Positions 33,853 through 55,100 of a stretch of 64,000 nucleotides of DNA are shown piece after piece. This DNA comes from Verrucomicrobiota bacterium. Lineage in GTDB: Bacteria > Verrucomicrobiota > Verrucomicrobiia > Methylacidiphilales > JBCCWR01. The position numbers were made by a program, and so were the translations under genes. The stretch covers positions 2,966 through 66,965 of the forward strand of contig JBCCWR010000002.1 of NCBI GenBank assembly GCA_039193385.1, given 5' to 3'. The notes beneath the pieces were generated by a model that was not told where the DNA came from, did no database searches, and worked only from the letters and a program-made list of their open reading frames with translations. The number at the start of each line of letters is the position of its first letter. Within the stretch, counting starts at the first letter, position 1.

Positions 33853-34758
33853 ATGAGAGAACAAAACGAAAACGCCATAACGATCCAAGGCCTCCGTAAG
33901 ACCTTTTCCGGTTTTCAACTAGGACCTTTGGATATGAATATCCCGAAGGGATCTGTATACGGATATGTCGGGCCTAATGGTTCTGGAAAGACGACGACGC
34001 TGGATCTCCTATTCGCAATGGGTGTGCCTGATGGCGGCACCGTACAAATGTGCGGAATCGACGCTTTCCGTGATGAGGTAGCGATGAAACGGAAGGCTGC
34101 CTACATGCCCACGGACATCAGCTACGCCACCTGGGGCGTGGTCTGGAAAGCCATCCGCTTCGTGCGTGGTTTTCACACCGACCGTTGGGATGACGCCTAC
34201 TGCGAGTCTTTGCTCAAGCGTTTTGACATCGGCTCACACGACAAGATATCTTCCCTCTCTTTCGGTAGCCAAACCAAACTCGCTCTCATTCTCGCCTTGT
34301 CCTGGAAACCTGAGATCCTTGTATTGGACGAACCCTCGACAGGGCTCGATGCCCTGGCCAAGCGAGAACTCTATGCCGAGTTACTTGACATCGTGAGTGA
34401 TGAAGAGCGCACGATTCTTGTTTCTTCCCACAACCTTGCAGACCTCGAACGATTTGCCGATCACCTCGGAATCATCCGGAAGGGTAAGATCATCCATGAA
34501 GGGCCCACGAACGAAATCGTGGATCGCTACCGCTTGGTCAAATTCCAGTTGCCTGAAGGCAGGGACTTCGAATCCGAGCCAGGGCTGACGCTCATGGCCA
34601 ATCAAGGAGGGCACTGCCAAGTGTTGGTGGATCAAAAACTAGTGCCTATCGAGGCTCTAGCGGCACGGGGAATTTCTGTAAAGAACCAGACTAGCCTTAA
34701 CTTAGAGGATCTCTTCGTAGCCCTTCTCAAGCCAAACTCAACCTCGAGCGACTCATGA
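33853..34758 (+). CDS. ABC transporter ATP-binding protein
   Basis: Walker A GPNGSGKTT, signature LSFGSQTKL, Walker B ILVLDEPSTGLD and H-loop SSHN. It overlaps the next gene by 4 nt. Confidence 0.9.
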   Translation: MREQNENAITIQGLRKTFSGFQLGPLDMNIPKGSVYGYVGPNGSGKTTTLDLLFAMGVPDGGTVQMCGIDAFRDEVAMKRKAAYMPTDISYATWGVVWKAIRFVRGFHTDRWDDAYCESLLKRFDIGSHDKISSLSFGSQTKLALILALSWKPEILVLDEPSTGLDALAKRELYAELLDIVSDEERTILVSSHNLADLERFADHLGIIRKGKIIHEGPTNEIVDRYRLVKFQLPEGRDFESEPGLTLMANQGGHCQVLVDQKLVPIEALAARGISVKNQTSLNLEDLFVALLKPNSTSSDS

Positions 34759-37758: not shown

Positions 37759-38883
37759 TCAGCTGAAAACATTGTTTTTGAGGTCACGGAAGACGGTGAG
37801 ATCACCCCAGTCCGCACCTATCATCTTTCTGGAAGCTGAAGTTCTGTTTTCATACGTAGGATAAAGTTTTGTATCATTGAGCTTTTGTTGGCTGATACCT
37901 TTTCTTCTGGCTTGCTCTTTTTCCCTCTGTTTCTGAGCTTTGAGTTGCCTGAACCAAGCATCCACAAACTCTTTACTGCCCAACACAGCACCATCACTCA
38001 TGTAGCGCACACGACATCGCAGCACCTGGGGTAAAGATAACCGTCCCCCTTCTGCAACAACCTTCTTCACCTGTTCAGGATCATAAGAAGCCACAGCCGA
38101 TCCAGCAAAACGCTCGCCACCTTGCCCTCTCTTAGTCCTAACTTGCGCCTTGGTCACCTGAGCACCTTTCATCACCAGTAAGGTTCGGTAAACTCTCTGC
38201 GTGGCATCCCACCTCACACGATCATAAATAGCTTTCAAACCAGACTGAGCTTTCTTACTACCTGCTACCGCCTCCCCATAACCACACCAACGGTAATCCT
38301 TAGGATCGGAAACCAACTTGGCTCTCACGCAATTAAGATCAATGTAGGCAGCCACCGCGGCTAGCGCAGCCTCACTATTCTCCATAAGCACACTCTTAAA
38401 GCGTTCCGCCCAAACGGTACCATAACGGGTTTTACCCTCATTTTCTTGGGCTGCCCTTGATTTGTTGTACCAGATAGTAAAACGCTGTTTGAGTTCCTTC
38501 ATAAAAAACGAAACATCACCCATACGTTTGAAAGCCTTCTGACGTTCGTACTCAGCCTCCACACCACCTTTTGAGAGTGTAGATTGTAATGTAGCAGCCA
38601 TCGCAGGCTTTTTAGGATAAAGCAGAGCAAAACGTCGGACCAACTCAACATCGGAAATGTTCTTCTTATTCTCATCAAGAGGGACTCGCACCAAAATATG
38701 AAAGTGATTACTCATAATGGCATACGTAATGACTTCCACACCACAGAACTCCGCCACCTGCCAGATCTGTTTGCGTAAAACTTCCTTCTCCTTATCTTTG
38801 AGCAGAAACATACCCCCAACACAACGACTGATGCAGTGATACACAGCCGTCTGCCCTTCAACTTTAATCCGTGCCGTTCTCAT
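37759..38883 (-). CDS. Y1 (HUH) transposase-like protein, IS200/RayT-like
   Basis: HUH motif MSNHFHILVRVP. The catalytic-Tyr helix AAYIDLNCVRAKLVSDPKDYRWCGY follows the RayT/IS200 pattern Y..LNPVRA.LV..P.DY.W. At 374 aa it has an extended C-terminus. Confidence 0.8.
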   Translation of the reverse strand: MRTARIKVEGQTAVYHCISRCVGGMFLLKDKEKEVLRKQIWQVAEFCGVEVITYAIMSNHFHILVRVPLDENKKNISDVELVRRFALLYPKKPAMAATLQSTLSKGGVEAEYERQKAFKRMGDVSFFMKELKQRFTIWYNKSRAAQENEGKTRYGTVWAERFKSVLMENSEAALAAVAAYIDLNCVRAKLVSDPKDYRWCGYGEAVAGSKKAQSGLKAIYDRVRWDATQRVYRTLLVMKGAQVTKAQVRTKRGQGGERFAGSAVASYDPEQVKKVVAEGGRLSLPQVLRCRVRYMSDGAVLGSKEFVDAWFRQLKAQKQREKEQARRKGISQQKLNDTKLYPTYENRTSASRKMIGADWGDLTVFRDLKNNVFS

Positions 38884-39208
38884 ATCATGTTCCTTATTTC
38901 GTTTACTTCAAACAACTTATGACAGATCAAACAGGAGTCAATAATAATAAGTCTGTCCCTTGTTTATTAAAAAACTGCTATCTTTATCATGTTTTCTTCA
39001 TTCATTTGAATGGAGGCCAATATAAGAATCGTCTAATGGCCCTTATATTGGTTGGGATTATCAGATCATCCTGTCCCTGGCTCACAGGTATTACTGGAGA
39101 GCGATTAAAAGCAAGATCGATAATCCCTTTAATTTTATTAACTCGTAGAGTTGCCAGAACGACCTCTGTTCTCATGTCAGTTCGCAGCACAAGGAGGAGT
39201 CATAAATC

Positions 39209-39766
39209 ATGAATCAATCAACCACTCATATTCATTACATCGGAATCGATATCGCAAAAGACAAACTTGATGTCCATATCCTTTCCAAGGTGCTTCAAAT
39301 ACCTAATGATAACAAAGGGTTTCATGCCCTCTTAAAGCGATTATCAAAAATATCAAATCCTCACATTATTTGTGAAGCCTCTGGAGCTTGTCATCTCAAG
39401 TTACTCGCATTCCTTAATAAGCATGGAATCGAAATCTCTGTCATTAACCCACGACAGGTTCGTGACTTTGCTAAAGCCAAAGGACTATTAGCAAAAACTG
39501 ATACCATCGATGCACGCCTGCTCACTGACTATGGAGCGTGTCTTAAACCAGCTTCTACAGAACCTCTACCTGACTTTATCCTTCAGTTAACAGAACTCGT
39601 AGATCGTAGAACACAACTACTGCAGATGATTAATGCTGAAAGCAATCGACTCTCTTCTACCAACTCCTCAGATCTTAGAAAAATGCTTAACAGTCATATA
39701 CGTTCCCTTAAAAAGCAGGTTGAGAAACTCATCGAACTCATGGGGCAACTTGTAGATGAACAGTAA
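39209..39766 (+). pseudogene. IS110-family transposase, N-terminal DEDD domain only, truncated by the IS66 insertion
   Basis: YIGIDIAKDKLDVH and ICEASGACH..LINPRQVRDFAKAKGLLAKTDTIDARLL form the IS110 N-domain. The frame stops at a TAA created by the IS66 terminal repeat (cagTAAgcg). The C-terminal Transposase_20 domain is absent. Confidence 0.8.
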
Positions 39767-39842
39767 GCGTCACATGTAGTGCCTTATAAAAAGAGTTGCG
39801 AAGTCATAGATGACATAAGTATAGGGCTATGACATCTACGAC

Positions 39843-41354
39843 TTAGGCTGCGTGTCGTAGGTGATTGTTTTGATTTTCTGCCCAGGCTTTGGGTGTGAGG
39901 TTTTTGATATCCCAGTTCGTTGAAGTGGGGATTTTTTCTAAGACATCTTTAAGATAAGCATAGGGATTAATGTTTCTTTTACGACAGGCTTCGATGATGG
40001 TGTAGAGGATAGCGCTTCGCCCTCCTGTTTGTTCTGCTCCTATGAAGAGCCAGTTCTTTTTACCAATGGCAGTGGGACGTATGGCATTTTCGATATGGTT
40101 ATTATCAATGGCTACTTGTCCATGATTGAGATACACCTCAAGCTTATCCCAATGGTTCAGAGCATAGTCGATAGCTTTACCTGAATTACTTTTGGGCAGG
40201 AAGTTTTGCTGCTTTTTCCAATAGACAAGCATGTGTTTAATGCGGTTAATAATCGGACGGCTTTGACTCTGACGTATAACCTCTCTGAGTTTAGGTCCAG
40301 CACGCTGATGACGAAGTTTTCGTTCGATTTGATAGAGTCTGTAAATTTGCAGTAAAACCCATCGCATACGCCTGTCGTGATCTTTAGCTTCGAAGAACTT
40401 TCTGCGAACGTGTGCCCAGCATCCTGCGAGATGAAGCTGAGGTCGAACTTTGTTTTGATAACTGGTGTAGGCACTGTAGCCATCGCACTGAAGGATGCCT
40501 TTGAAGTCAACAGGAATGATATTGTTTAAACAACTCGCACTACGTGAGCACTGCCAGTCAAAGATAGTATCATAGCCTTGCTTACCATAGACCCAGAAGT
40601 AACCCTGTTGAGTGCGACCTGATCCTGGATGTAAATAGGCGATGGGTGTTTCATCCACTTGCAAGTAATCACCCTTTTGCAGAAGCTCCTGTTGCATTTG
40701 CTTATAAATGAGTTGCAGAGAGTCAGTGGCCAGTCCCATCCAACGTGCCATGGTCTGTCTTGGAATATGGAGATCATAACGATGCCTGAAGATCTGCTGC
40801 TGGCGATAAAGTGGAAGATGATCACAATATTTACTTACAACAATCGAAGCCATCAGTCCGGGTGATGCGTAGCATCCATCGGCTAATGTATGGAGTGGTG
40901 CAATAACAGGAGGCGTATAAGGGTTATCTTTACGAACGTATTTGCGACGAATGATTTGCCTACGCTTGAACCTGCCAGGTTCATAGTCAAGCTGCTCGGT
41001 CACTTCCTCTCCCATCAGTCGCCACTGCTCAGGAGATGCCTTCACCTCATCAGGATCAACATAAACTTTTTCAACTGGAAGATTTTCAGGGACACGTGGC
41101 TTGCGAGCTGCAGCCTTTTTAGGAGAAGGAGTGTTCTGTTCTTCGGCCTCCGCATACGCTTCTAACTCACATACGGAGGCTTCGTCTTTTTTTCGCTCCG
41201 CCTCCTCTAAAAGCAGCAACTGATTCGGATCAACCTTCTCACTACTGCTGCCATAGATCCTGCGAGTAAGGGTATCAACTTTTTGTTCAAGCAACTTGAT
41301 CTGAGCCTTGAGCAAGGCATTTTGTTCTTCAAGTTGTCTTTCCCGTTTACTCAT
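39843..41354 (-). CDS. tnpC: IS66-family transposase TnpC
   Basis: 503 aa. It has an N-terminal leucine-zipper-like coiled coil, a CxxC-type region and a DDE_Tnp_IS66 core (LQVDETP, CWAHVRRKF, AIDNNHIENAIRP, KNWLF). Confidence 0.92.
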   Translation of the reverse strand: MSKRERQLEEQNALLKAQIKLLEQKVDTLTRRIYGSSSEKVDPNQLLLLEEAERKKDEASVCELEAYAEAEEQNTPSPKKAAARKPRVPENLPVEKVYVDPDEVKASPEQWRLMGEEVTEQLDYEPGRFKRRQIIRRKYVRKDNPYTPPVIAPLHTLADGCYASPGLMASIVVSKYCDHLPLYRQQQIFRHRYDLHIPRQTMARWMGLATDSLQLIYKQMQQELLQKGDYLQVDETPIAYLHPGSGRTQQGYFWVYGKQGYDTIFDWQCSRSASCLNNIIPVDFKGILQCDGYSAYTSYQNKVRPQLHLAGCWAHVRRKFFEAKDHDRRMRWVLLQIYRLYQIERKLRHQRAGPKLREVIRQSQSRPIINRIKHMLVYWKKQQNFLPKSNSGKAIDYALNHWDKLEVYLNHGQVAIDNNHIENAIRPTAIGKKNWLFIGAEQTGGRSAILYTIIEACRKRNINPYAYLKDVLEKIPTSTNWDIKNLTPKAWAENQNNHLRHAA

Positions 41355-41402
41355 AGTTAAGCCGCTTCCACCCTAACAAATGAGTCTTATAACGTACATC
41401 TT

Positions 41403-41759
41403 TTAATCCTCACGCTCATACCAGGGACGCATGCTACCACTCTTTAAATCAACTCCATCTGTTAACATCGCAAAAGCCTCTGGACTCAGCTTGAGTTTTA
41501 CTGCATTAGGGTTCGTTGTCTTCGGCCAACTAAAACTGCCTTGCTCAAGTCGTTTGCTTAATAGCCACAACCCACTGCCATCCCAATAGATAATCTTCAG
41601 ACGCGTATGCTTGCGATTGCTAAATAAAAACAAAGCGCCTCCACGAACTTCATCACACAATCTGTCTTTAACCAATGCCTCAAGTCCATTAAAACCCTTG
41701 CGCATATCACAGGGCTCCAGAGCCACATAAATCTTCAAGCTCCCACTAAAGCTTAACAT
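41403..41759 (-). CDS. tnpB: IS66 Orf2-like protein TnpB
   Basis: 118 aa. VALEPCDMRKGFNGLEALV, LFLFSNRKHTRLKIIYWDGSGLWLLSKRLE is the standard IS66 TnpB signature. Confidence 0.92.
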   Translation of the reverse strand: MLSFSGSLKIYVALEPCDMRKGFNGLEALVKDRLCDEVRGGALFLFSNRKHTRLKIIYWDGSGLWLLSKRLEQGSFSWPKTTNPNAVKLKLSPEAFAMLTDGVDLKSGSMRPWYERED

Positions 41760-41762
41760 CTC

Positions 41763-42138
41763 TTACTTGCCCAAAAGATTTACTAACTCAGCTACCAGTG
41801 GCAGTTGACTACGATCACTGACTTCCACCTTCGTCCCGTTAGCCAATTCCACCTTGAGAACACCTGGCTTTGCTTCGACCACGGCCTCTACCAGAGCTAA
41901 GGATTTAGGTGCCTTCTTTACCTTAGGCTTATGATTGCTGGTGTCTTTAGCTATATACTCGCCACGGGCTCGCCTGCGATTACAAAAAGGTCTGCTGGCC
42001 TATCCCATAATGCCTGCAAAATTGTGAGGCTGGCATCCCGCTCTTTTCAAACTCATCAAGTAATGCTTCACGTTTCTCGGGCGGCAATGTCACGCGTCCT
42101 AACACATCTGTTTTTAAGATCTCTAGCTCTTCGTTCAT
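41763..42138 (-). pseudogene. tnpA: IS66 tnpA (orf1) disrupted by an 11-nt deletion
   Basis: It reads MNEELEILKTDVLGRVTLPPEKREALLDEFEKSGMPASQFCRHYGIGQQTFL* and continues in another frame (RRRARGEYIAKD...LVAELVNLLGK*). Compared with the orphan fragment at 37540-37560, 11 nt (ccatgtcgaaa) are missing near 41984. Confidence 0.8.
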
Positions 42139-42215
42139 CAGTAATGTCGTATACTACCCTTTACGACTTTACCTATGCCACCCTCATCGTACGGCACTAC
42201 ACGTGACGCTTACGC

Positions 42216-42641
42216 TTAGCAAGCAATTGGACTCGATAGTTTTTCGACCTCAATAGTACCGAAAGCCTTATTTTCTGGGAAGACCAAGACATATTCAGTT
42301 TCAAAATCAAAACGAATTCCCATTTTCCGATGCGCCTTATCGATTATTAAAATCGCAGCATCAATAAGGCATTTTGGAATAAGATGTTTCTCTGCTAAAA
42401 CGTCAATAAACGGAAGCAAATCAACATCGCGAGAAGCACCTAATTCATCTCCTTCTGAACGCCGCCCTTCAGCAAACTTTCCTATGTTACTAAGCTCAAA
42501 AGCAACCAAATCAAATAGCTGATCGAACTCTTGGACAGGTATCTCGCCAAATTCACCATCTCCATTATCGTCTATAAAATGATCAATGAGAGGCTCAATT
42601 TGATCTGCAGAAACAATCACATAATCAAAGTCAGTAGTCAT
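42216..42641 (-). CDS. Putative cognate immunity protein of the RHS toxin
   Basis: About 141 aa from the ATG at 42641, which is 7 nt after the RHS stop. The protein is acidic and cytoplasmic-looking with no signal peptide. The assignment is by position only. Its stop lies 2 nt from the IS66 end. Confidence 0.55.
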   Translation of the reverse strand: MTTDFDYVIVSADQIEPLIDHFIDDNGDGEFGEIPVQEFDQLFDLVAFELSNIGKFAEGRRSEGDELGASRDVDLLPFIDVLAEKHLIPKCLIDAAILIIDKAHRKMGIRFDFETEYVLVFPENKAFGTIEVEKLSSPIAC

Positions 42642-42648
42642 AGAATTA

Positions 42649-45600
42649 CTATCTTCCTTCAAATGCTCTCTTACGAGCATTCATTGCTGCCCCAATCGCA
42701 TTTGCAGTGGGATTCTCGGTGTCGGTATCAAATGTTCCATATTTAGAGTTATTACGTATCGATTGGAATGTATCACTATATGCATTTCCAACAGGCTCCA
42801 CTGTAACGTCATAGAAGGTGGCACTTTTCACAGCATTCTCAGTAGCGCCCGCAAGACCCTCTGCTTGCAAATCAACAACAAAGAAAGCGGCGGCGCTAAG
42901 TGGTCCCAATTTCCGGGCGAGCTTTCCACCCATCTTATTAAACATCCCTCCCCTTTTGTTGAAGAGCTTAGGGTTTAACCCAGTCTGAAGTTTCATCATT
43001 TTATTTTTACCTCCAAAATCATCTAACATCTCGTTGAGACCAGTAGTATTAGCCCCCTTCCCAACCATCTCGTTAAACTGCTTATTGTACGGGTCTGAAT
43101 TAATCTGATCTACCAGCATGCTCGCGAGTTCTTTAGATTTCTTGGCTGATAAACCTCCTATATCAACACCATCTTTCTTAACTAACTCTAGCACCTGATC
43201 GACAATCTCACTGGACCTTTTGTCGTAGACTTCGTGAGCATTAGACCAACCATGCCGCGGCATTCCCCTTGGTTTTCCTGCGGGAACTTTCATGTCTTCT
43301 AATGCATCTGTGAGATGCTGATTCCAATTGTCTGTTCCGTGCATCTCCCTAAGTTTCGCGCGTGTAACAACATGGTGATCAGTGGGCTTAACTCCAGGTG
43401 GATCATCTTTACGCAACCCTGTTGGGTCGAACATGGTCCAAGGATTTTGGACGACATAGGTGTAGACGTTTGGACCGTCGACAAAGCCTAGGGGGTCTCG
43501 TGTGATGAAGACACCGGCTTCGAGGTCGCGGTAACGGAACCCTTCGTTGAGGAGGCCGGTGGGGTCTTCGTCTTTGGTATTTGCACGTTGGCGGTCAGTA
43601 TTTGTCCCTATCTCGGCGGTGCGTTTTCCGAAGGCCTCGTATTGGGCCTGCCATCCGATCGCGCCAAGCGGGTCTGTTTTGGCTACAACGTCGCCACGGC
43701 TGTTGTAGTGGTTAAATGCTGGAGTGTCGGATCTGAGGGTATAGAGAATACCTCCGATGCCGCCACCGTAGTCGCTACCACGGATATACTCTACCTCCGG
43801 AGAAGATGATACGGTGGTCGTGTGCTCCTGGACTGATGTGCCGCCAGAGAATGAGAGGATCGTTAAGTCGCGACCAGAGATTGCGCTTTCGTCGCGAACT
43901 ACGCGTCTGAGACGTTGGTCGTAAGCATAAGCGTAACTTCCGGTGTCGGCAGTTCCCGTCTGGTAATCTAGAGTGATCAGGCGGTTGTCATAGTCGTAAC
44001 TATAGGTATCGGTGTGGGTACCGTCGCTCCGTGAGCTGCGGTTTCCGTTGGCATCATAGGTGTAGCTGATGATTTGAGTGCCATCCGACAGTGTGATAAG
44101 TTGATTACTATTGGCGGTGCTCGCGCTGCTGCCGTCTCCAAAGGTATACGTTGTGGTGGTGTCAAGAACGGTATCGGTGTAAGTCCGCTTGGCAGATCTG
44201 TTATGAGCATCATCGTAATCGTATTCAGTGAGGTTGGTAGTGCCCCCCGAAATTGCGATTTCTTCGGAGTCCAGCCGATAGGTGCGGTCGTAAGTATTTG
44301 TAATGACACGATCTGTCAGATTCCCTAGCGGATAGAACTCTTCGATCTGACGGATATTGGAGACGGCATCGTAAGCATACCGATATTCAGCGAATGGTTG
44401 TAGGGCAGATGGGGCGGTATTCGTAGCGTTTTCCTTGCGACCAAGGATGTCGTATACACATTCTATAATTACGCCATTCGGAAGCGTCTTCCTAACAATG
44501 TCTCCAGCTGGGTTGTATTGGTATTCAGTTTCACGCGTGCCGTCGGTGAGTGTTTCCAGGCGGTTGAGCACGTCATAGGTGGATGTCAACAGGCGTGACG
44601 ATTCCCCATATGTGGTGCTTCTACGGTTGCCTGCCTTGTCATAGATGTAAGTGTGTGTGATCCCCGCCGAAGTCTCGGTTTGTAGACGATTGAGTGGATC
44701 GTAGGTGGATGCAACTGCCCGGATAGAGTCCACCTCATTCGGATACGTGACTGAAAGAATATTTCCGTTCGGATCGTATGCATAGTCGCGATCGTCAATA
44801 GCGCGACCGGTAAATCTGACATTTTTTAGGCGGTTTAGATCATCATATTCGTACGCAGTGTACTGAGCCTTCTCGTCAGTGCGGCCATACATTAGAAGTG
44901 CGTTGTAGTGGCTTTCGTGAGTGCGTTCGAGCTCTTGCCCTGAATCCCAGATCGTGTGCGTTTTTCGAGACAAGCCGTCGTAACGGAACTCGGTAACGGC
45001 TCCCTTGCCATCGGTGACGCGTGTTTGGTTGCCCGTATCGTCGTATTGGTAGGATACGAGAATATCGTCCGTATTCAGTGTACCTTCGACAATCGATGGT
45101 TGACCCGTAGTGGGATTCGTAACGGTCGAAGTCAGCCTGTTTAATGCATCATAGAAGTTGACTGTGACGTTATCCTCCGAATCGGTAACTGTTTTGATAT
45201 TCGAGTTTTTGTCATAGGTGGTGGAAGTGACTAAGGCTTGGGCACTCACCTCACCGAACACGGGAACGGCTGAAGTCGTGGTGGTTGTGGGACGGTTCGC
45301 ATTATCAAATGTGATTACAGTGCTGAGGCCACGCGGATCTGTCGTCCCGATGACATTACCTACCCCATCATAGTCAGTGATCGTTGTTGGCCATACAATC
45401 GGCTCAGCAGGATTTGAATAGTCAACAACCGCGGGAGCTCGCTCGCTTATCTGGCGATTTCTTGCATCATAGGTGTAATTCCAACGAAAACCTCGCGGAT
45501 TAATTGTCGCTGATATATTCGAGGCCGCATCGTAAATCGTTTCGGTAACAGGGGATCCTATAAGTGTATCATCGGCAGGTTGTCGATCGATTGCTCCCAC

Positions 45601-48600
45601 TAATGACAACGGATCGGTCTGCCAGACTTTCACTGGTCTACCGGCGGCGTCATATTCCGTTTCGGTCCGATTTCCGCGTGGATCCATTACCTGGTAAGCG
45701 AGTCCCGTACTTGAGTAGCTTGTGGTAGTCAGAGTCTCCAGGGGGTCCCCGAATGCATCGCGTACCTCAACGACACGGCCAAGGCCGTCTCGCGTAGTCT
45801 GAACTACCTTTCCTAGAGGGTCACGCGCCGTTGAAATCAAGGACTCTTTTTCCCCGACAATGTCTCCGTAGTCTGTAGATGTCAGAGCTGAGACACCTGA
45901 GACATACTCTACCGTAGTGGACTCTTCTCGGTAAACTTCATCATACACGATGATAGTGCTAAATGTTTCGGTGTCCAAGAAGGTCCTATAGGCGTCGTGT
46001 TGGATGATTTGTGTCGGCTTGAAACCTTCGCTACCGAATGCACTAGCCCCGGGATTCCGGAAATTGTCGTAGACGTATTCTGTGTGCGTCCTTTCGGATG
46101 ATCCCGAAATCGTGGGATTTCCATTAATCTCTTCGCCATTCCCGTCTACAGCCGTTCCTTCATAATTGGTATAGGTATGCACGACACGTTGAATATCGTC
46201 GTAAAAATTACGTGTAACAATGCCTCGTGGATCGGTCACAGATGTCAGCGAGTTTACATCATTGTATGTATAGGAAGTAACGATGTCCGCCTCGGTGATC
46301 TCTCCTCGGTTATCATCCGCAAGTATCTGTGGCTCAAATTCAAAAGGAATCGATGGCAGGCCAAGTCCGTCCATGTCGACGATGGTACGGATTTTTCTTC
46401 CGAGTTCATCATAGTGGTGCATGGTATGGTGCCCCTCTTCATCAATTTCCAAAGTAAGGTTACCACTATAATCGTAGATGTATCTAACAAAAGTCACACG
46501 CTCACCATTTAGGGTTCCCGCGGATGGGTAAGTGACTTTCACCAGTCGATTTAATTTATCGTAAGTAAAGGTAGTGGTATTGTTTCTGGGGTCTGTAGCA
46601 GAAGTGCGATTTCCATTATTATCGTAAAGGTAGGAAGTCGTGAGAGCGAGGCCCTCTGGATCTACTATTTCCCGGAATATACGGCCGTTGCTGTCCGCCA
46701 CGTATTCAGTAACAAGATCCGTCTCCCATGCTTGCCCACTGATATTTGCGTAAGCATCAACCTTCTTTCGGGTCATAAATTTTGGGAAACCTGAGTTCGT
46801 GAAGAAGTAGTCTTCTTGGCTTAGTTTTACACCCGATGAATCTTCAACTATTTTATCAGTTCGCCGCCCCAGGCTATCTATATCGTATTCGGTGCGGGTT
46901 CCATGCTCATCAACAATTTTGGACATGATCCGGTAATCACCGGTATACTGATATGTGGTCACTCGACCGAGGGCGTCAGTCATTATAGTGGGGTCCGACC
47001 ATTTACTCATCATGTTCGGGAAATTTGTGGTAGTGATACGAGAACCCGCACTCGCACCACGAGAATTTTGGAATTCCCATTCCGTGGTATTCCCCGAAAA
47101 ATCTTCAATACTCTCTAAGCTGAGACCTGAATCAGGGTCGAAGGTGAATGTTTCAGTACCGATTGGGGTCTCATTACTATGGGCACCTCCATAGTAGCTT
47201 ACTTCCATGGTCTCATAATAGAGAAGCCATTCGCTGGAGGTACCGGTTGAGCTATCACCATAGGTGATATTTTTATCTATAATTTCACCGCTGACATCCT
47301 GAAAGGAGTAAATGGTATAATTACCTTCAGTATCCTCAATTATTGTCTCTACGTTCGTCGCTGTGAACCTGGGTCCAAATTCCAGAGACGTATTACCTTT
47401 CGAAAACTCACTCTGACGATTTCCGGGAAGGGTGACTTTCTTGACTAGTCTAGGTAATCCATAGGTCTTATTATAGTCCGATTGACTACTGGAGCCATCG
47501 TCTCCATTTATGTCCTCTAGCTGTTGATTTATTTCCGCCTGGGCATTCAATGGAAGGTGATTTGTCGAGACAGGGACATATACAGCGCTTCCTCCACTCG
47601 CGGAATAGCTTTTGATGGTTTCGTTTGGCTCATATTCGAAAGTGTAGGTATTTTCGCGCTTATCGGTAATTGAAGTGATATTACCGTGATAGAAACTCGT
47701 TGGTGAGTCCGGATTGATTTCGGCATCTGAATCCTCAGCGAAGCCATAATCATACTGCTTAGAGGTTCCATCGGGATAATCTACTGACATCAGCTTAGTC
47801 ACATCATATTCAACAAACTCTTTTTCAGTGAGATAATTAAACTCGATCGTATTTCCGCGCGGATCGGTAATAGAATCAATTCTTCTACAATCGTCGCTTC
47901 GGGCAATCGAGATGCTCTGCCCTGGGAATTCCGGTGAACTAATCGAGGTCGGTATTAGTGAAACGGACGAGCCTCCATAGTCATAGTTAAGAATGTTGCC
48001 GAACCGATCTTCTACTTGCACCAACCGCCAATACGTATGCTTTTTGGTGCTGTCGCCGCCGTCCACACGGTTTGAAGAGTAATGGAACCACGCATCGCAT
48101 TTCGCATAGGTCAATGTATTACCATACTTCTTATAGAGCACCAAATTGTCACCGCTCCGTTCGAGTCTATTCTCGTAGGTCTTAGCATCTACCAGTGACG
48201 AGGGCCAAGGGAAGAATGCGTCATCACTATCGATTCCGAATCTCTGAGAATGACCATTCTCGTCGACGACATTTACGCTCATTGGAGCAGTCATAACGCC
48301 GGACCCTAGGCTTTCGACCTGCTCAACATAGGAACATATATTAGAGCTCCACCCTGCTCCGAAAGGCAGAGTCAACCGTTCATGGGGCCTTAGACCTGAA
48401 CGATCCGTCCAACTCAATTCACTCGCAGAAGCTGTCACGCTCAGGACTAACTCGCTGGAGGCCAAGGGGACGTAGACATAGGAAGTATCATGCCTTAGGC
48501 TGAGATCAAACGCATCAATATACGTCTCTTCATTCTCTAAGTCTTTCTCATCTTCCTCTTGTGGTTTCTCGTCGGGAATGGGACGCCCGTTCAATGCAAT

Positions 48601-50931
48601 CTTACGGTAGCGCGGTCCGACTGAGTCTCTTCCAGAGTAGCTCTCGGACCAGCTGGTGCTGGCAATTGGGATCAGATAGGCAGACTTCGTCGACCACTCG
48701 GACTCAGGCACATCATCGTTGAAATAGTCAGGATTGGCTCTCAACCATTCCGAGACATCACTAGCATTTTTTCCATCCTCTGATAAAGGCGGAGTAAGAA
48801 GACTATCGGGGTCAATTACTAAAAACCCATTGGCTTCGACATTGGACACGTAGTCATAGTCAAATCGATTTTGCTCAGAGGCTATATGTTCGAGGGTAAT
48901 CTCATAAATCTGACCTCCTGCCAAAACTAAAGAATAATTGTAAACCGAACCAAATCCTTGCGAAGTCGCGCTTTGATTTCCGATATTTAGACTCCACCTT
49001 TCAGACTCACTACCTGATGGATCGCCAATATAGCCACCAATGGTGTAACCACCGCCAAACGAATAATCGAGACCGACGTCACCTATATCACCACAGTCTA
49101 AGTCACTGACATCAGGACCGTTATACTCGCCAGGCACAAAAGGCTTACTCGTATTACTCGTCGGATCGCCTCCGCCGAGTAATTCGTCATTATCGTCGTA
49201 TCCATCAAAATCGCTATCGGCTAGGTCGGGATTCGTTCCATACAGAAATTCCGTGGCAGTATCTAAACCGTCGTTATCGAAATCCACGCCAATTAGCTCG
49301 TCCGGAACCAAAGGATTGAGGAAGATACTATTAAATTCGTCAACATCCGCTATGAGATCGAAATCAGTATCCCAATAATTTGGATCAGTGCCAGTTTGGA
49401 ACTCTTCGAGATTTGTTAGTCCATCTTCATCAAGGTCCAATACTGCGTCAGAAGAGTCGAAAGGATCGAGACCTGCATTTAATTCCCAGACTCCGTTCAT
49501 GCCATCATTGTCACCATTTATCACATCCCATTCGATAACAAAGCGCTGAGAACCATTTGAGACGAAATCGATGAATATTGCAGGTTCACCACTGTCAAAT
49601 AAGCCTATCTCGGTTTGCTGGTCAGATGCATAAATCGGTAGGCCATTCTGGGTAATTTTTTTAATGTATAGGAAGATGTCAGAGCTCGGCGAATATTGAG
49701 CTATCCGACGCATAGACCAAGAAATCTCCTGCCCTCGGGGAAACCAATTGTCTCCGATCCAACTCACGTTGACTTCGAGGTTTAAGTTTTCTCGATAATA
49801 GAGAGAGTCGACGATGACGCGAACTCGATCTAATTCCAAGGCGTTTAATCCACGAAACAGTTCAGTGAAATTGTCCAAGCCATCTGAGTCTTCGTCGGAG
49901 GTGCCGTCAAATGAAAGGTCAGCGAATAAATTTTGCTCCCAGTCATCGGGTAAGTAATCGAAATCGGTATCAATCCAAGGTGTCAAAAATGCACCAATTA
50001 CAGGTCTTACTGTCTCTTCATCCTCAGCTTCATCTTCTTCTGGATAGACTCGTATATAAGTAGGTGCGCTGAAGGATCTCTTAGCGGGCTCACTGGTCGC
50101 GATTGCGCCATCTGCATTGAATATGCTAAATATCGTGTTGTCGTGCTGAGCCGTCAGGTGACTGATCAGTGAATCTGGATTCACAACAAAACCATCTTCT
50201 TTATCAAACTGTGTGACCACCATGTAGTTTCCTGGGCCCGGAAGTTCTATTTCATATAGAAATTTATAACGATAAAGTGGGCAAATAACATTCTGTGGTG
50301 ATAAACGTTCCGAGGAATAAGGATCCACCGGATCGATATCTAACTCAATAGCGTTGTCGAGTAACCCATCAGCGATATCGGATTGTTCGAGTGTATCCAA
50401 GTCGACAACATATATCTGCGGGCGAGGAAAATCGTCTTCGTCAAAAAACTCCGCTATTCCATCTGGATAACCGCTGCCCGCCCTATAGTCAGTAGGAATT
50501 TGTATAACACCCGTTCCAAACAAAATTTCTAGATCCAACTCTATAGTGTTCGATTCGACGGAGTAACCCATATTATCGGTAAATGCATCAGCATTCGGAA
50601 CAGTGACTGTTGCTTCTACAAAACGTCCGTCCCAAGAGACTAAGTCGACGAAAGTTTCCTCTCCTTCACCCGGCAGGAGGGTCGGACCATCTGGTCCTAT
50701 TTCGAATTCGACGACAGTTCCGTCACACAAGGTAAACGATGTTATACCTGGTCCGTCGTGGAAACTATCGAAATTCGTTATGCGTTCTCCAAAACATTCA
50801 CCGTTCAAAACATATAGAGTCTGAATTCCATCACCCACAACGAGATTAAAATCCCGAAAACTGAATGATTCATTGTCCGCAAAAGCTGAACTCGAACAGA
50901 CAAATAAAAATATTATAATCCTTTTAAGCAT
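42649..50931 (-). CDS. Giant Sec-signal RHS/YD-repeat polymorphic toxin (about 2760 aa)
   Basis: Signal peptide MLKRIIIFLFVCSSSAFA|D from the ATG at 50931. TSP3-type Ca-binding repeats (DLDEDGLTNLEEF, DSDFDGYDDNDE). Dozens of YD repeats (YDALNRL, YDGLSRK, YDDLNRL, YDPLNRL, YDVLNRL). Core end GGGIGGILY...FITRDPLGFVDGPNVYTYVVQNPWTMFDPTGL, followed by a 254-aa C-terminal tip. Confidence 0.92.
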   Translation of the reverse strand: MLKRIIIFLFVCSSSAFADNESFSFRDFNLVVGDGIQTLYVLNGECFGERITNFDSFHDGPGITSFTLCDGTVVEFEIGPDGPTLLPGEGEETFVDLVSWDGRFVEATVTVPNADAFTDNMGYSVESNTIELDLEILFGTGVIQIPTDYRAGSGYPDGIAEFFDEDDFPRPQIYVVDLDTLEQSDIADGLLDNAIELDIDPVDPYSSERLSPQNVICPLYRYKFLYEIELPGPGNYMVVTQFDKEDGFVVNPDSLISHLTAQHDNTIFSIFNADGAIATSEPAKRSFSAPTYIRVYPEEDEAEDEETVRPVIGAFLTPWIDTDFDYLPDDWEQNLFADLSFDGTSDEDSDGLDNFTELFRGLNALELDRVRVIVDSLYYRENLNLEVNVSWIGDNWFPRGQEISWSMRRIAQYSPSSDIFLYIKKITQNGLPIYASDQQTEIGLFDSGEPAIFIDFVSNGSQRFVIEWDVINGDNDGMNGVWELNAGLDPFDSSDAVLDLDEDGLTNLEEFQTGTDPNYWDTDFDLIADVDEFNSIFLNPLVPDELIGVDFDNDGLDTATEFLYGTNPDLADSDFDGYDDNDELLGGGDPTSNTSKPFVPGEYNGPDVSDLDCGDIGDVGLDYSFGGGYTIGGYIGDPSGSESERWSLNIGNQSATSQGFGSVYNYSLVLAGGQIYEITLEHIASEQNRFDYDYVSNVEANGFLVIDPDSLLTPPLSEDGKNASDVSEWLRANPDYFNDDVPESEWSTKSAYLIPIASTSWSESYSGRDSVGPRYRKIALNGRPIPDEKPQEEDEKDLENEETYIDAFDLSLRHDTSYVYVPLASSELVLSVTASASELSWTDRSGLRPHERLTLPFGAGWSSNICSYVEQVESLGSGVMTAPMSVNVVDENGHSQRFGIDSDDAFFPWPSSLVDAKTYENRLERSGDNLVLYKKYGNTLTYAKCDAWFHYSSNRVDGGDSTKKHTYWRLVQVEDRFGNILNYDYGGSSVSLIPTSISSPEFPGQSISIARSDDCRRIDSITDPRGNTIEFNYLTEKEFVEYDVTKLMSVDYPDGTSKQYDYGFAEDSDAEINPDSPTSFYHGNITSITDKRENTYTFEYEPNETIKSYSASGGSAVYVPVSTNHLPLNAQAEINQQLEDINGDDGSSSQSDYNKTYGLPRLVKKVTLPGNRQSEFSKGNTSLEFGPRFTATNVETIIEDTEGNYTIYSFQDVSGEIIDKNITYGDSSTGTSSEWLLYYETMEVSYYGGAHSNETPIGTETFTFDPDSGLSLESIEDFSGNTTEWEFQNSRGASAGSRITTTNFPNMMSKWSDPTIMTDALGRVTTYQYTGDYRIMSKIVDEHGTRTEYDIDSLGRRTDKIVEDSSGVKLSQEDYFFTNSGFPKFMTRKKVDAYANISGQAWETDLVTEYVADSNGRIFREIVDPEGLALTTSYLYDNNGNRTSATDPRNNTTTFTYDKLNRLVKVTYPSAGTLNGERVTFVRYIYDYSGNLTLEIDEEGHHTMHHYDELGRKIRTIVDMDGLGLPSIPFEFEPQILADDNRGEITEADIVTSYTYNDVNSLTSVTDPRGIVTRNFYDDIQRVVHTYTNYEGTAVDGNGEEINGNPTISGSSERTHTEYVYDNFRNPGASAFGSEGFKPTQIIQHDAYRTFLDTETFSTIIVYDEVYREESTTVEYVSGVSALTSTDYGDIVGEKESLISTARDPLGKVVQTTRDGLGRVVEVRDAFGDPLETLTTTSYSSTGLAYQVMDPRGNRTETEYDAAGRPVKVWQTDPLSLVGAIDRQPADDTLIGSPVTETIYDAASNISATINPRGFRWNYTYDARNRQISERAPAVVDYSNPAEPIVWPTTITDYDGVGNVIGTTDPRGLSTVITFDNANRPTTTTTSAVPVFGEVSAQALVTSTTYDKNSNIKTVTDSEDNVTVNFYDALNRLTSTVTNPTTGQPSIVEGTLNTDDILVSYQYDDTGNQTRVTDGKGAVTEFRYDGLSRKTHTIWDSGQELERTHESHYNALLMYGRTDEKAQYTAYEYDDLNRLKNVRFTGRAIDDRDYAYDPNGNILSVTYPNEVDSIRAVASTYDPLNRLQTETSAGITHTYIYDKAGNRRSTTYGESSRLLTSTYDVLNRLETLTDGTRETEYQYNPAGDIVRKTLPNGVIIECVYDILGRKENATNTAPSALQPFAEYRYAYDAVSNIRQIEEFYPLGNLTDRVITNTYDRTYRLDSEEIAISGGTTNLTEYDYDDAHNRSAKRTYTDTVLDTTTTYTFGDGSSASTANSNQLITLSDGTQIISYTYDANGNRSSRSDGTHTDTYSYDYDNRLITLDYQTGTADTGSYAYAYDQRLRRVVRDESAISGRDLTILSFSGGTSVQEHTTTVSSSPEVEYIRGSDYGGGIGGILYTLRSDTPAFNHYNSRGDVVAKTDPLGAIGWQAQYEAFGKRTAEIGTNTDRQRANTKDEDPTGLLNEGFRYRDLEAGVFITRDPLGFVDGPNVYTYVVQNPWTMFDPTGLRKDDPPGVKPTDHHVVTRAKLREMHGTDNWNQHLTDALEDMKVPAGKPRGMPRHGWSNAHEVYDKRSSEIVDQVLELVKKDGVDIGGLSAKKSKELASMLVDQINSDPYNKQFNEMVGKGANTTGLNEMLDDFGGKNKMMKLQTGLNPKLFNKRGGMFNKMGGKLARKLGPLSAAAFFVVDLQAEGLAGATENAVKSATFYDVTVEPVGNAYSDTFQSIRNNSKYGTFDTDTENPTANAIGAAMNARKRAFEGR

Positions 50932-50936
50932 GGCTA

Positions 50937-51188
50937 CTAATTTTTGACAGGCGTCCACTCATACCAAATGTCGCGGGGCTGAGATTGAAAGCTGTCCAGT
51001 AAATCAGTAATGTCTGTGCCATTAACTTTAACACTTTTTATCGACGGTGGTCTCTCTTTTGATAAGGGTATATTAGACCCTGCGGCGAATGGTGTAAATA
51101 CCTGCCCATTCAGATTTAGAACTATTAGAAAAAAAACTAGAATTGCGGCACTTGTAGCCAAAAAGATGTGTTTGTGACGTTTACTCAT
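50937..51188 (-). CDS. Small N-terminally anchored membrane/periplasmic protein
   Basis: 83 aa with one N-terminal TM helix (IFLATSAAILVFFLIVLNL). It starts 1 nt after the upstream stop and ends 5 nt before the RHS ATG. No family was recognised. Confidence 0.5.
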   Translation of the reverse strand: MSKRHKHIFLATSAAILVFFLIVLNLNGQVFTPFAAGSNIPLSKERPPSIKSVKVNGTDITDLLDSFQSQPRDIWYEWTPVKN

Positions 51189-51189
51189 T

Positions 51190-52125
51190 TTAATTGTTCG
51201 TTAACTTTTTTGCCAAATAGCGAAGATTTGCGTGCGTTGTCGTGCTCAAGAAATTCTCCAAGCCAGTGCTCACATCTGCATGCCACACCGCATTCTTTTT
51301 TAAGGCACCGAGCACTGCTAGCTGTATACCGACAGATGGACTCGGCTGTTCACCCAAAATCTGCACAGCAATCCGCGTACTGGCAACATCGCCGATTTCA
51401 CCAAGAGCCTGGATAGCGCTTATTCTTGAGGCTTCGGAAAAAGTGACGTCTTGAGCGATAATGTTGGCAACTTGCTTAATAACAGAAAGTTCAAACTCAG
51501 GACACGACACACAGAGGTAGACCAAATTGATAAAAGAAGTCCCACACAGAGAATTCTTTTCAAACAAACAATTTGCGATCACAGATTGAAAGGCGTCTCG
51601 AAGCTCGGTCAAATATTCTGGCACAGCACCGACCCAAGTGCGCTCATAAAAATCCACAAAATACTGTAGCACGTATTCACGCCAAATTATGGACTGTGAA
51701 GTGTCTAAGACGATATGAAGCATCAATTGACCCACGAGATGTGGATTTTCATCGCTGTGTATGTATTTGACCAACAAATCATTCCTTAGAGAGTAAGTCG
51801 ATAGTTCCCCAAAAGACCCTGTTGGCACAGGGATATTGTTTGAAAGGAAGAAAATGAGAGCAGTGTGGTCTGCTTCACTTAAATCATCAATAACTACCTT
51901 ACTCGCAATCTTGGCCCGTGTAATGTAATCTGTGGTATTTTTTAGGAGCAGGACTGCATCGTTCGACATTGCTGCCGCATCGATAGTGGGCACTTCAAAG
52001 GTATTCACAAAACTCACACTTGGCGGTGGATTCCCTGCTATTCGAGCTGTCACGGTATCTCGAAATACGGAGGCATTAACTAAGTTAACACTCAACAAGA
52101 AAAAATTGATCATTATAAATTTCAT
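51190..52125 (-). CDS. Secreted alpha-helical (HEAT/ARM-like repeat) protein
   Basis: Signal peptide from the ATG at 52125 (MKFIMINFFLLSVNLVNASV). The C-terminal ISAIQALGEIGDVASTRIAVQILGEQPSPSVGIQLAVLGALKKN resembles PBS-lyase-type HEAT repeats. The fold call is weak. Confidence 0.4.
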   Translation of the reverse strand: MKFIMINFFLLSVNLVNASVFRDTVTARIAGNPPPSVSFVNTFEVPTIDAAAMSNDAVLLLKNTTDYITRAKIASKVVIDDLSEADHTALIFFLSNNIPVPTGSFGELSTYSLRNDLLVKYIHSDENPHLVGQLMLHIVLDTSQSIIWREYVLQYFVDFYERTWVGAVPEYLTELRDAFQSVIANCLFEKNSLCGTSFINLVYLCVSCPEFELSVIKQVANIIAQDVTFSEASRISAIQALGEIGDVASTRIAVQILGEQPSPSVGIQLAVLGALKKNAVWHADVSTGLENFLSTTTHANLRYLAKKLTNN

Positions 52126-52130
52126 AACAG

Positions 52131-55100
52131 CTATCTTCTCCCGATTTTTCCAATTAAAACACCGTCCTGGTAGACGTATGTCCGGTGACATACGGAACCT
52201 CGCACACTATCTGGCTTTATGAGGACAAAGTCGTAGGTGCCGTCGACTGCAAACTCAGACAATGAAACTTCGCGGACCCGCGTCCCGTCATCAAAGGTAA
52301 CCCCTGCCTTAAAAATATCTATTCTGATCAAAATATCCTCGGAGGAGAAGTCCGGAGAAATATACAGAGTGCTTTGAACTAAACTAGTACCATCCTGACG
52401 CTTGAATTGCTTCAAATACCCTTCAACGGCTTCAACAAGCCAAAACGTATTCATCTCGACTGAAGTAATAGGAGAGCCATCGGGCAGCCTTGCGGTCAAA
52501 GTGTTGCCAGGAAACTCTAAGTTTGAACCGAGTTCGAAATGAATAGAATTTTCACCTATAGACTTAACCTTTGCCAAGGCTTGGCCTCTACTAATTGGCA
52601 ACAGAGGTGAAATGTTTTCCCAGGTCCATTCTCTTTGCTGCTCCAACCAAACGTTGGGAACATGAGATGTATCCGGAATTTCCACTACATCAACAACAAT
52701 TTGCCGAGAGTCCGTCACACCACCAGGATAAGTTACATCGGCAATGATCGTGTATTGGCCGCTTTCCGAGAACTTGTGGACAGTCTCTTCACTTCCAGAT
52801 AGGTTGCCGTATACGGAAGAACCAATGTTTACATGACCATTGACCCCCGCCAGCTCAGAGAGTATGAACTTGAGCTGCGAGCCAGTAGTGACAATGAATT
52901 CTTCTGGAGAGTCGTCCGCAAACAGAACCATGGGCTCCCAAGACACATCGATAATCTGCGATAAGCCGCCATTCTGATAATCAACCACAAAGCTTGTATT
53001 GGGCTCAGACACCTCAATCCGAGTGTACCATTGATTCGTTTCGCTACGCCTCAAAAACGCCCCGTTTGATATGGCCATCATCCCGGGAAAGCGAGAGAAA
53101 CCTTCAAGTGAAACCGGGGACACATGGGTCATTATATTGCTCTCGAAAGCACCCTCCTGAGCGCTCAAAATAGCCAATTCCCACTCATCACGAAGCACCT
53201 CCGTTGCGAAATCTGGAGACTCTACTTTCACATAGTCAATTTGAACTGACCTTCCTCTAAAAACATTGTCCCATCTCAGATTGAAAGTATGCGAACCTAC
53301 ATCGAGGTAAGGCGTTAGTAGCACTTGATCTTGAGAGAATTCCGCGTCAGCTATTTGCACATTTTCAAGGTATTGACCGTTAATCTTCGCTACAAAGAAG
53401 ACAGGCATGCCAAGAGTGAGCTGAGTTTCAATACGGCGCGCTACTTTATAATGAATCTCATAGATTCCGGGGGTCGTGATATTGAAATCAAAAGAGAGTT
53501 CACCGTTTAACGACGAAGAATAAATTGAATCACCACTCATAACCCAGCTTCCAGAGAGAGTTGACGCTTCGCTTCCGCTTATTGTCAGAACAGTTGACGT
53601 CGAAGCATATTCTGAAACAAGAGGATCTGAGCCGCGCACCAGAACTTCTTCCCCATCGCTAACTCCATCACTATCGGTATCCGCGTTGAGAGGATTTGTG
53701 CTGTAAATTGTTACTTCATCAAGGTCAGAGAGTCCATCAAAGTCTGTATCTCGCGTATATCCGACTAACTCCACGTTTGCTGCGACAAATTCTCGATCGC
53801 CACGACCAGAGCTTAAGTAGATGCCAGCTACAGTATTCAAATCAAATTGGGTCGCGGTCTCAGCAATCACGCTCCAGAGAATACCGTCCCCAGAAGCCTC
53901 TACAACAGTGAGAATTTCACCGCGCGTAACTCTGAGGTATAGTCCTGGCAGGAAATCACCATAATAGGTCGGGCCGTTTATAGTAAGCTTGTCGCTATCG
54001 CTTGCTCGAGTCGATTGATAAAATCTATCCGTAATTCTTAAATAACCGGCAACCATTTTCGAGTCCACGTCGATACTATTACGAACCATTAAGCCTACCT
54101 GGGTTTTATTATTTCCCGACTCTACGTTGTCTACGCGGAAGGTCATAGAATAACCCCCGGTATTCTCTCGATAGAAAAAACTACTGTCCTCAACGCCATT
54201 GCCTGCAGAGCTAAGCAGCCAGGAGTCCCCAAATACAAAACCATAACCCGAATCGACATTGCCATAATCCACGGTCTGCCATGGATCTGGCAGAAGACCA
54301 TCGGGAGCTTCACTTGAATCTATCGGAGAAGTCCGAGCAAACAATTCTTCGGTATCCGTGAAACCATCTCCGTCCGTATCAATAAGGTTAGGATCAGTAT
54401 AGATGTCAAATTCTTCGATATTAGCGAGCCCGTCTGCATCTAGGTCATCCTCGCTATCATCTACTAATAGATTTAACCCATTGTTATACTCCCAAAGATC
54501 CGACATGCCATCAGAGTCCGTATCGAACGCATAGAGATTGCTTCCAACAAGCCTCTCCGTTTCATTAAGTAAACCATCTCCGTCGAAATCCATTCCCTCG
54601 GGTTCGCCATTTGAGACAATAAAATTATCAAACTGGGCAGAACTCGAGCTTGCAGAATTTTGAAGGATATCTAAGTGAGAGAAATAGACGAGATCAGCGT
54701 TCACGAAAGGAATGTCTTGTGCATACATGACACCATTTAAAAATACAGAAGTCGTTTTCGTGATGTAGTCGAGATAGAAGGCGTATTGATTGACTCCGGG
54801 CACTAGACTAGATGGAAATATATCGATCCATTCGCCCGCCTTTGCGTCCCAGATTGAAATACTCGTCTCGTCTTTTTTGCCGATCACGAAGGCGTGGAGT
54901 GTGGCAATCGTTTCAGGCAGGTCACCTTCCAATAAATCGGCGTCAAAGGATACCCAGACTCGTCGCTGGTTCTCTATTCCGAAACGTTGGGTGGCAGAGC
55001 TAATTTCGACTCCGTTATCGATAATTGCCAAAGATTCATCCCCCTGAACCTCTGCGGTTCCTGTGCTAAGCCATCCGAGCTGACCATTGAGAGGGCCTGG

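Follow-up and report, generated by a model that had tools for sequence, protein, structure and literature searches.

What does the C-terminal tip of a large RHS protein do when no catalogued family recognizes it, and what is the small gene that follows it? The question arises in a 64,000-nucleotide (nt) stretch of the genome of a Verrucomicrobiota bacterium (Methylacidiphilales, JBCCWR01; assembly GCA_039193385.1, contig JBCCWR010000002.1, positions 2,966 to 66,965 of the forward strand), hereafter the window, in which an RHS/YD-repeat protein ends in a tip of 254 amino acids (aa) and is followed by a gene for a 141-aa protein. An earlier note, made from the DNA letters and their translations, had described the tip as an unassigned and possibly composite family with an AHH/LHH-like nuclease motif, belonging to an exchanged toxin/immunity cassette. 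We hold with high confidence that the tip and the downstream gene form such a cassette. The locus is an RHS toxin/immunity system, a known kind of system, of which the toxin domain family, the immunity family, and an exchangeable C-terminal module are new.

A rare tip on an RHS polymorphic toxin

42649..50958, minus strand: RHS/YD-repeat protein, an uninterrupted open reading frame (ORF) of 2769 aa, stop codon counted in (ORF list and translation)
43414..43641, minus strand: RHS-associated core domain, ORF residues 2440-2515 (TIGR03696 Rhs_assc_core, 49 bits, cut-off 32.5)
43414-43428, minus strand: DPTGL self-cleavage motif, at the end of the RHS-associated core
42652-43413, minus strand: the tip, 254 residues after DPTGL, the C-terminal end of the RHS protein (translation)
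42216..42641, minus strand: probable immunity gene, 141 aa, with ATG at 42641 and the stop codon at 42216-42218 counted in

The host protein is an RHS/YD-repeat polymorphic toxin, with shell repeats, a core ending in DPxGL, a variable tip, and an adjoining downstream immunity gene. RHS repeats (PF05593) were matched 17 times in the 2769-aa protein (E 8e-53, Pfam scan), and the NCBIfam scan adds matches to TIGR01643 and NF041261 (YD_repeat_2x, RHS_core). The true start is likely the ATG at 50931, after which a Sec-type signal peptide can be read by eye from the sequence (MLKRIIIFLFVCSSSAFA/DN). Homologs of the RHS core end bear unrelated tips; these homologs were short fragments without Pfam labels and served for taxonomy only, the closest of them carrying the names Opitutales, Verrucomicrobiaceae, and Coraliomargarita, which points to Verrucomicrobiota as the probable source of the window. 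Translation of 42652-43413 reproduces exactly the tip sequence quoted in the earlier note, and the motif coordinates given there (43414-43428) cover DPTGL and not the whole of PWTMFDPTGL.

The description of the tip as an unassigned family holds, as no Pfam or NCBIfam model matches either the tip or the 141-aa protein at E<=1. A word-indexed homolog search of 5.8 billion proteins returned nothing for the tip and one protein only for a profile of its N-terminal domain. Exhaustive phmmer comparison with 1.84 billion representative proteins produced 20 tip matches at E<=1e-3, of which 19 are true relatives; the remaining one, P0008, was rejected as a spurious repetitive translation (4488 aa with 10 matched stretches). 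Most of the relatives are C-terminal tips that start right after the DPxGL of RHS proteins, and two (P0003 and P0007) stand behind non-RHS N-terminal regions for which Pfam scans gave nothing above threshold. Two scans of GTDB species genomes found no relatives and tblastn against the PLSDB plasmids found no match to the tip family; metagenome contigs do contain relatives (loci L001 onward). The closest homolog, P0001 at locus L009, shares 44% identity with the tip of the window. Sequence searches of the PDB gave nothing meaningful, either for the tip itself or for profiles of the full tip and of the tail.

Two modules and a probable immunity family

43009..43413, minus strand: N-terminal domain of the tip (N-domain), tip residues 1-135, defined by conservation, AlphaFold2, and hhalign against AHH
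42910..43008, minus strand: Gly/Lys-rich linker, tip residues 136-168, the junction between the modules, where alignment conservation ends
42652..42936, minus strand: C-terminal exchangeable module (the tail), tip residues 160-254 (alignment A3)

The tip consists of two modules with different histories, the N-domain and the C-terminal part, which bears out the suggestion that it is composite. These separate histories are visible in pairwise comparisons of N-domains, tails, and downstream (immunity) proteins, all given as local BLOSUM62 scores:

L003 and P0005: N-domain 382, tail 23
L003 and P0010: N-domain 172, tail 220
P0006 and P0007: N-domain 339, tail 54
L003 and L011: immunity 171, N-domain 382, tail 23
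L005 and L008a: immunity 150, N-domain 305, tail 19
L003 and L005: immunity 34, N-domain 172, tail 220

Beyond approximately residue 135 the family sequences split into unrelated tail types, including the N-x2-KSATFYDVTVEPVG type of the window and several others, one of which (TQYYRFG...TPEE) is carried by P0007, P0009, and P0020. Similar N-domains carry at least three tails that are unrelated to one another, and the tail type of the window is also found on the other N-domain subfamily and, at locus L002, on an N-domain to which the family profile gives 0.3 bits. The tail is exchanged independently of the N-domain.

The 141-aa ORF begins 7 nt after the RHS stop codon, with a ribosome-binding-like site (GAAGGAAGA) ahead of it. 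Homologous tips at L001, L003-L008, and L011 each have, directly 3', a protein of 138-157 aa, and these proteins are interlinked by BLASTP, with the one from L006 connecting all of them at 1e-7 to 1e-12. An eight-protein profile from which the protein of the window was excluded matches the 141-aa protein with 24.8 bits and a conditional E of 1.4e-9, covering profile positions 3-132 out of 145. This is the sole match of that profile among the 473 ORFs of the window. The length of the 141-aa protein is about typical for the family (~145 aa), and its last ~10 residues differ from the ...LGF ending at the C-terminus of the family. The 141-aa protein and three relatives gave no Pfam family at E<=10, including Imm11/DUF1629, Imm43, and SUKH, and the downstream ~145-aa proteins are, by their sequences, a probable new immunity family.

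The similarity of the downstream protein tracks the N-domain and not the tail. At L002, where the same tail follows a different N-domain, the neighboring gene is also different and encodes 292 aa, and the loci with the KSAT-type tail of the window have no second gene in common. Because immunity similarity follows the N-domain, the ~145-aa protein is best explained as the immunity protein of the N-domain, and this tracking, combined with the lack of a second shared gene, argues that the N-domain is the toxic part of the tip and that no separate immunity protein is required for the tail. One observation weighs against this pairing, in that the closest homolog, P0001, has no downstream immunity ORF.

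In the ~600 bp that follow P0001 (L009 6026-6652), no ORF exceeds 54 aa. At L010, the immunity profile does not recognize the 150-aa protein encoded after P0002.

The notion of an exchanged cassette is supported by the immunity profile match and by the co-variation of N-domain and immunity protein. At L008 (3480-4477), downstream of the homologous tip of that locus, there is an orphan cassette, composed of a 194-aa toxin-family fragment that lacks the HH region (27 bits to the family profile) and a second, divergent 138-aa immunity-family gene after the truncated tip, which shows typical RHS cassette dynamics. The base composition that had been expected of such a cassette, with both tip and downstream gene AT-rich by eye, is realized in the downstream gene, where GC is 0.385 (2.4th percentile of the window) and third-position GC is 0.28 versus 0.51 in the YD-repeat part. 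The GC of the tip, 0.448 versus a window mean of 0.465 (35th percentile), is ordinary for the window and is lower only than that of the 1 kb of RHS core bordering the tip (0.53).

The N-domain as a candidate AHH-like nuclease

43372..43377, minus strand: HH dyad, H13-H14 of the tip, invariant and aligned to the HH of AHH domains
43216..43254, minus strand: H54-GWSNA-H60-EV-Y63-D64-K-R66, which contains the second His pair and Tyr, where helix 58-80 starts

The HH/His motif that had been pointed out in the tip, with DHH at tip residues 12-14 and HGWSNAH-x2-Y (x2 being EV) at residues 54-63, is conserved beyond chance. In the 15-tip alignment (A1, A2), residues H13, H14, H54, H60, Y63, Y109, and F113 are invariant, and at least 90% of the sequences share L38, N64, R66, A97, D107, N114, V117, and G120; all of these positions fall within the first ~125 tip residues. 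AlphaFold2 with the 15-sequence alignment modeled residues 1-150 with a predicted local distance difference test score (pLDDT) of 84-97 and the remainder poorly, with a predicted template modeling score (pTM) of 0.67 for the whole tip, and confidence drops from ~90 to 55 in the linker region. The single-sequence prediction (pLDDT 47) was unusable. The modeled N-domain is mainly helical, with single beta-bridge residues at 13, in the HH dyad, and 43, followed by a long helix (58-80) that begins with the H60 region. In the model, these bridge residues and the helix after them would fit a strand, insert, strand, helix arrangement.

Tox-AHH (PF14412) is an HNH/EndoVII (His-Me finger) nuclease domain of polymorphic toxins (PMC3113570, PMC3482391) with the signature [AG]HH, N, H, H, Y, and has been reported from Verrucomicrobia (PMC3482391). 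The first His of its dyad is assigned as a metal ligand, the second as the water-activating base, and the His residues of the helix as further metal ligands (PMC3113570, PMC3482391). Scans of approximately 20 members and consensus sequences of the tip family against 24,736 Pfam families identified AHH as the sole polymorphic-toxin nuclease family, below its gathering threshold of 22.3 bits and for one member only: P0011 scored 16.3-17.1 bits (E 0.0056) over profile positions 4-94 of 111. For profile-profile comparison, a reference set of 16 AHH proteins was drawn from PLSDB plasmids with a made-up AHH-like peptide used purely as bait; nine were verified by Pfam at 36-75 bits and the other seven rest on record annotation or similarity. 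Comparing 15 family members with the nine AHH proteins, hhalign reported a probability of 30% (P 5.5e-4, score 27.8), which rose to 66% (P 5.5e-5, score 32.6, 93 columns) with 18 members and all 16 AHH proteins. In the larger comparison the HH of the family falls on the HH of AHH, H60 falls on a His of H-x-G-x-H, and Y63 falls on the invariant Tyr. Column-shuffled AHH alignments had a mean score of 11 with a 95th percentile of 14, reversed or unrelated alignments scored 9-12, and for the smaller set 1 of 200 column shuffles was at or above the real score.

Several results weigh against an AHH-like nuclease. The tip of the window had no AHH match at E<=10, the family and subfamily consensus sequences had none, and no member was above threshold. 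The hhalign probability is only 66%, and for the larger set the real score was reached by 3 of 300 shuffles. The Asn of AHH (in NGVxLP), judged to be invariant in the nine-member AHH alignment A5, has no fixed counterpart, as it aligns to L38, with E, D, or N as the neighboring residue. The spacing between the two His residues is x5 (x4 in one subfamily) versus x3 in AHH, and the tip of the window has D at position 64, where the family has N. The model of the N-domain contains only single-residue beta-bridges and no clear hairpin, and Foldseek searches with the tip model against the PDB and BFVD found nothing similar (best E above 1).

The comparison with AHH toxins extends to further features. 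Both families occupy the C-terminal tip position on RHS and other polymorphic toxins, and both have an HH dyad, then [VI]-x-P in many members, a helical insert, and two His and a Tyr at the start of a helix (H54, H60, and Y63, all invariant in the tip family). The residue before the HH is D, G, K, Q, or V in the tip family versus A or G in AHH. Unlike AHH, the tip family has an extra conserved helical region (D107, Y109, F113, and N114) and an N-domain followed by an exchangeable C-terminal module, and it precedes an unannotated ~145-aa family, whereas the AHH toxins retrieved here precede DUF1629/Imm11 or Imm43 proteins.

An alternative is that the N-domain is some other metal-binding enzyme, such as a zinc hydrolase acting on cell wall, lipid, or protein, for which the likeness to AHH would be convergence or an artefact produced by aligning a few His and Tyr residues. 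An almost entirely helical model, no His-Me finger structure from Foldseek, no Pfam HNH-type model above threshold, and the missing Asn of the HNH motif would all suit such an enzyme, and a periplasmic target is conceivable because the RHS protein has a signal peptide. The AHH match, however, runs collinearly through 93 columns and brings HH, His, and Tyr into register (P 5.5e-5, with unrelated controls at 11-12), and AHH is the only sub-threshold match among the 24,736 Pfam families that fits the context. Pfam scans of members and consensus sequences detected no peptidase, lipase, or amidase family at any E-value, and the N-domain has no HExxH or similar motif. A metal-binding enzyme of another kind appears unlikely.

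Another candidate that recurred in the scans was DUF1048 (PF06304), always below its threshold of 29.6 bits; the highest score, 22.2 bits, came from a subfamily consensus. In the PDB, 2hh6 matched at E 0.25. DUF1048 was rejected as helical and compositional similarity, the match being limited to the helices after the His motif and never above threshold.

A probable distant relationship to AHH survives testing by hhalign and Pfam, and the assignment to AHH or LHH does not: the N-domain is not a member of either family by the families' own criteria, because no member is above the Pfam cut-off, no Asn is fixed, and the immunity family is different. The N-domain is probably a new, rare family within the AHH-like branch of the His-Me finger nucleases, and the sequence comparisons favor the AHH-like nuclease reading by a modest degree.

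The C-terminal exchangeable module

42868..42903, minus strand: hydrophobic patch PLSAAAFFVVDL, tip residues 171-182
42787-42837, minus strand: conserved motif N-x2-KSATFYDVTVEPVG, within the C-terminal module

A Gly/Lys-rich region followed by a hydrophobic stretch had been noted in the second half of the tip, and both are present, as FNKRGGMFNKMGGKLARKLG (residues 151-170) and PLSAAAFFVVDL. Gly and Lys constitute 37% of residues 128-168 versus 19% of the whole tip. The additional description of a hydrophobic C-terminal half does not stand, since residues 128-254 are hydrophilic overall (an index of -0.45, reported as GRAVY, the grand average of hydropathy), residues 169-190 are the sole hydrophobic part (+1.18), and the best 19-residue Kyte-Doolittle window reaches 1.27, below the 1.6 usually required of a membrane helix over such a window. 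All family members have, at the corresponding place in the tip, a hydrophobic patch 11-15 aa long, with 19-residue maxima of 0.8-1.95, mostly below 1.6, and a hydrophobic helix long enough to span a membrane is not convincing in the tip. The tail alignment (A3) has invariant D, A, N, S, T, D, P, and G, and neither Pfam scans nor PDB sequence searches identified a relative of the tail.

A membrane-damaging function for this half would make the tip a double toxin, with the hydrophobic stretch at the heart of a tail that acts on membranes or forms pores. The retention of a short hydrophobic patch after basic residues in every member, the invariant polar residues of the KSATFYDVTVEPVG module, which suggest a specific function, and the movement of the module between toxins like an independent unit are all compatible with a second toxin. 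Yet the patch is short and mostly below the membrane-helix cut-off within a hydrophilic half, unrelated tails replace the module on closely related N-domains, no second conserved gene is common to the module-bearing loci, and the one conserved downstream protein varies in step with the N-domain rather than with the tail. A second toxin in the tail is improbable.

A delivery role for the tail is possible, though we regard it as rather unlikely. By analogy, the tail may be a portable, non-toxic delivery or entry module that Verrucomicrobiota RHS toxins swap between unrelated toxin domains and that acts in membrane engagement or in import of the toxin into the target cell, a specific version that we consider unlikely. 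The parts of the module are the Gly/Lys linker, which is basic, the short patch of hydrophobic residues, and the N-x2-KSATFYDVTVEPVG motif. The cytoplasm-entry domain of CdiA-CT toxins lies N-terminal to the nuclease. As an analogy for this hypothesis only, the likeness is of a non-toxic module that is exchanged independently of the nuclease and needs no immunity protein; the module here differs in being C-terminal to the toxin domain and in having no sequence similarity to the CdiA-CT entry domains.

The N-domain of L002 (WNHGIPQ...SH...GGIH..Y) had been considered by eye as a divergent relative of the tip family, and is treated as unrelated because the family profile scores it at 0.3 bits. 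This locus (L002 115-1863) has a tip after DPEGL that has no Pfam match and carries the same KSATFYDVTVQPVG tail, followed by the 292-aa protein, which has a faint beta-propeller match. The two may be another uncatalogued toxin/immunity pair.

Mobile elements and genomic neighborhood

39763..42213, minus strand: IS66-family insertion sequence (IS) element, beginning 2 nt after the stop codon of the immunity gene, part of the context and outside the cassette

The element has 37-nt terminal inverted repeats (GTAAGCGTCAC...) and matches to TnpB_IS66 and DDE_Tnp_IS66, and its first small ORF is apparently split into pieces of 52 aa and 39 aa (41763-42138). There is no clean 8-bp target duplication (TGCTAAGC versus TGTTCATC), and the far end of the element cuts a 185-aa IS110-type transposase ORF. 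These junctions suggest a rearrangement or deletion downstream of the cassette, and the original sequence after the cassette, perhaps including orphan cassettes, is lost. The only other copy found is on a 1.4-kb contig of run SRR22824305 (L030), which agrees exactly in the tip end, in the immunity gene, and in the 29 nt with which the IS66 repeat begins. The identical junction implies that the same or a very close strain, with the same insertion, was sampled elsewhere. A truncation of the immunity gene by IS66 is conceivable, and the second copy shows the same arrangement.

Such a setting raises the alternative that the cassette is a decaying remnant in an IS graveyard, in which the toxin or the immunity protein may be inactive. 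The proximity of IS66 to the immunity stop codon without a clean target duplication, the interrupted IS110 gene with an IS200-like gene beyond it, the last ~10 immunity-protein residues that do not align to the ...LGF motif, and D64 in place of the family N64 would be in line with decay. Against these stand the uninterrupted 8.3-kb RHS reading frame, the presence of all invariant tip residues, an immunity protein near typical family length that aligns to profile positions 3-132 of 145, and the recurrence of the same junction in an independent sequencing run. Decay of the cassette is very unlikely on this evidence.

In the region 37759-39766, an ORF of 374 aa that encodes a Y1 transposase domain of IS200-like type follows beyond the IS110 gene. 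The neighbor immediately upstream of the RHS gene encodes a 1540-aa protein (52131-56753, minus strand) that contains bacterial TSP3 repeats and weakly matches the calcium-binding domain of binary toxin B/anthrax protective antigen; the gene is overlapped by a 333-aa ORF without a family match (51190-52191, minus strand). The 1540-aa protein could be a partner for the export or delivery of the RHS protein. RHS residues 1-1019 (47900-50958) are themselves rich in Asp-containing, TSP3-like motifs of calcium-binding type. Further from the cassette are an ABC-transporter pair (33853-36113) and a sulfatase gene (57837-59264). A sulfatase is also present at L009, together with Big_9/cadherin-like genes, and the sulfatase and its neighbors fit a genome of the polysaccharide-degrading marine Verrucomicrobiota type. 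At L003 (7185-10391) the homologous RHS cassette is followed by genes for three secreted paralogs, each of ~350 aa and each opening with ...PVGLITLTVNGTGGTQ...

A proposed mechanism and its place among RHS systems

It should be noted that the locus shares its basic design with classical RHS cassettes, such as those of type VI secretion system Rhs effectors and the TcC proteins of Tc toxins: a shell of YD repeats precedes a core that terminates in DPxGL, the tip varies and has an immunity gene directly 3' of it, GC is lower in the cassette, and relatives carry orphan tip/immunity cassettes. It differs in the Sec signal peptide, in a long Asp-rich N-terminal region without a Pfam match, and in a bipartite tip. 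The Pfam scan of the N-terminal 1000 aa gave nothing above threshold, and PAAR, VgrG, and TcB-type partner domains are absent.

Taken as a whole, the proposal is of a Sec-exported RHS toxin/immunity cassette with an AHH-like nuclease N-domain, an immunity protein, and an accessory tail, and as a complete set of parts it has a marginally better than even chance of being correct. The RHS protein would be exported via Sec, and its shell, as inferred from the RHS family, would cleave itself after DPTGL to free the 254-aa tip and hold it until delivery. The first ~135 residues would be the toxic part, a putative metal-dependent nuclease that cuts nucleic acid with a His-Me-type metal site. In this site the general base would be H14, the metal ion would be bound by H13, H54, and H60, and Y63 and R66 would make contact with the substrate, with the roles of the HH dyad as metal ligand and general base following those described for Tox-AHH (PMC3113570). 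The 141-aa protein would neutralize the N-domain by binding it and so protect the producer. The tail, a module that recombination has moved between toxin domains, would not be toxic alone. Its most likely role is that of an accessory; more speculatively, it may help the toxin to engage or cross the target membrane, which is the preferred guess, or else pack it in the RHS shell.

RHS and other polymorphic toxins are a main source of new antibacterial enzyme families. What this tip contributes is an uncatalogued set of three: a rare domain that is probably an AHH-like nuclease, its cognate ~145-aa immunity family, and the exchangeable module at the C-terminus. Verrucomicrobiota-type bacteria are the source of all three, and the RHS proteins of these bacteria have signal peptides instead of type VI secretion adaptors. 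Should the tail not be an entry module, the value of the finding would be limited to new Pfam-type families and a better annotation of such loci. Should it prove to be a delivery or entry module, the finding would bear on how RHS-borne nucleases reach the cytoplasm of their target cells.

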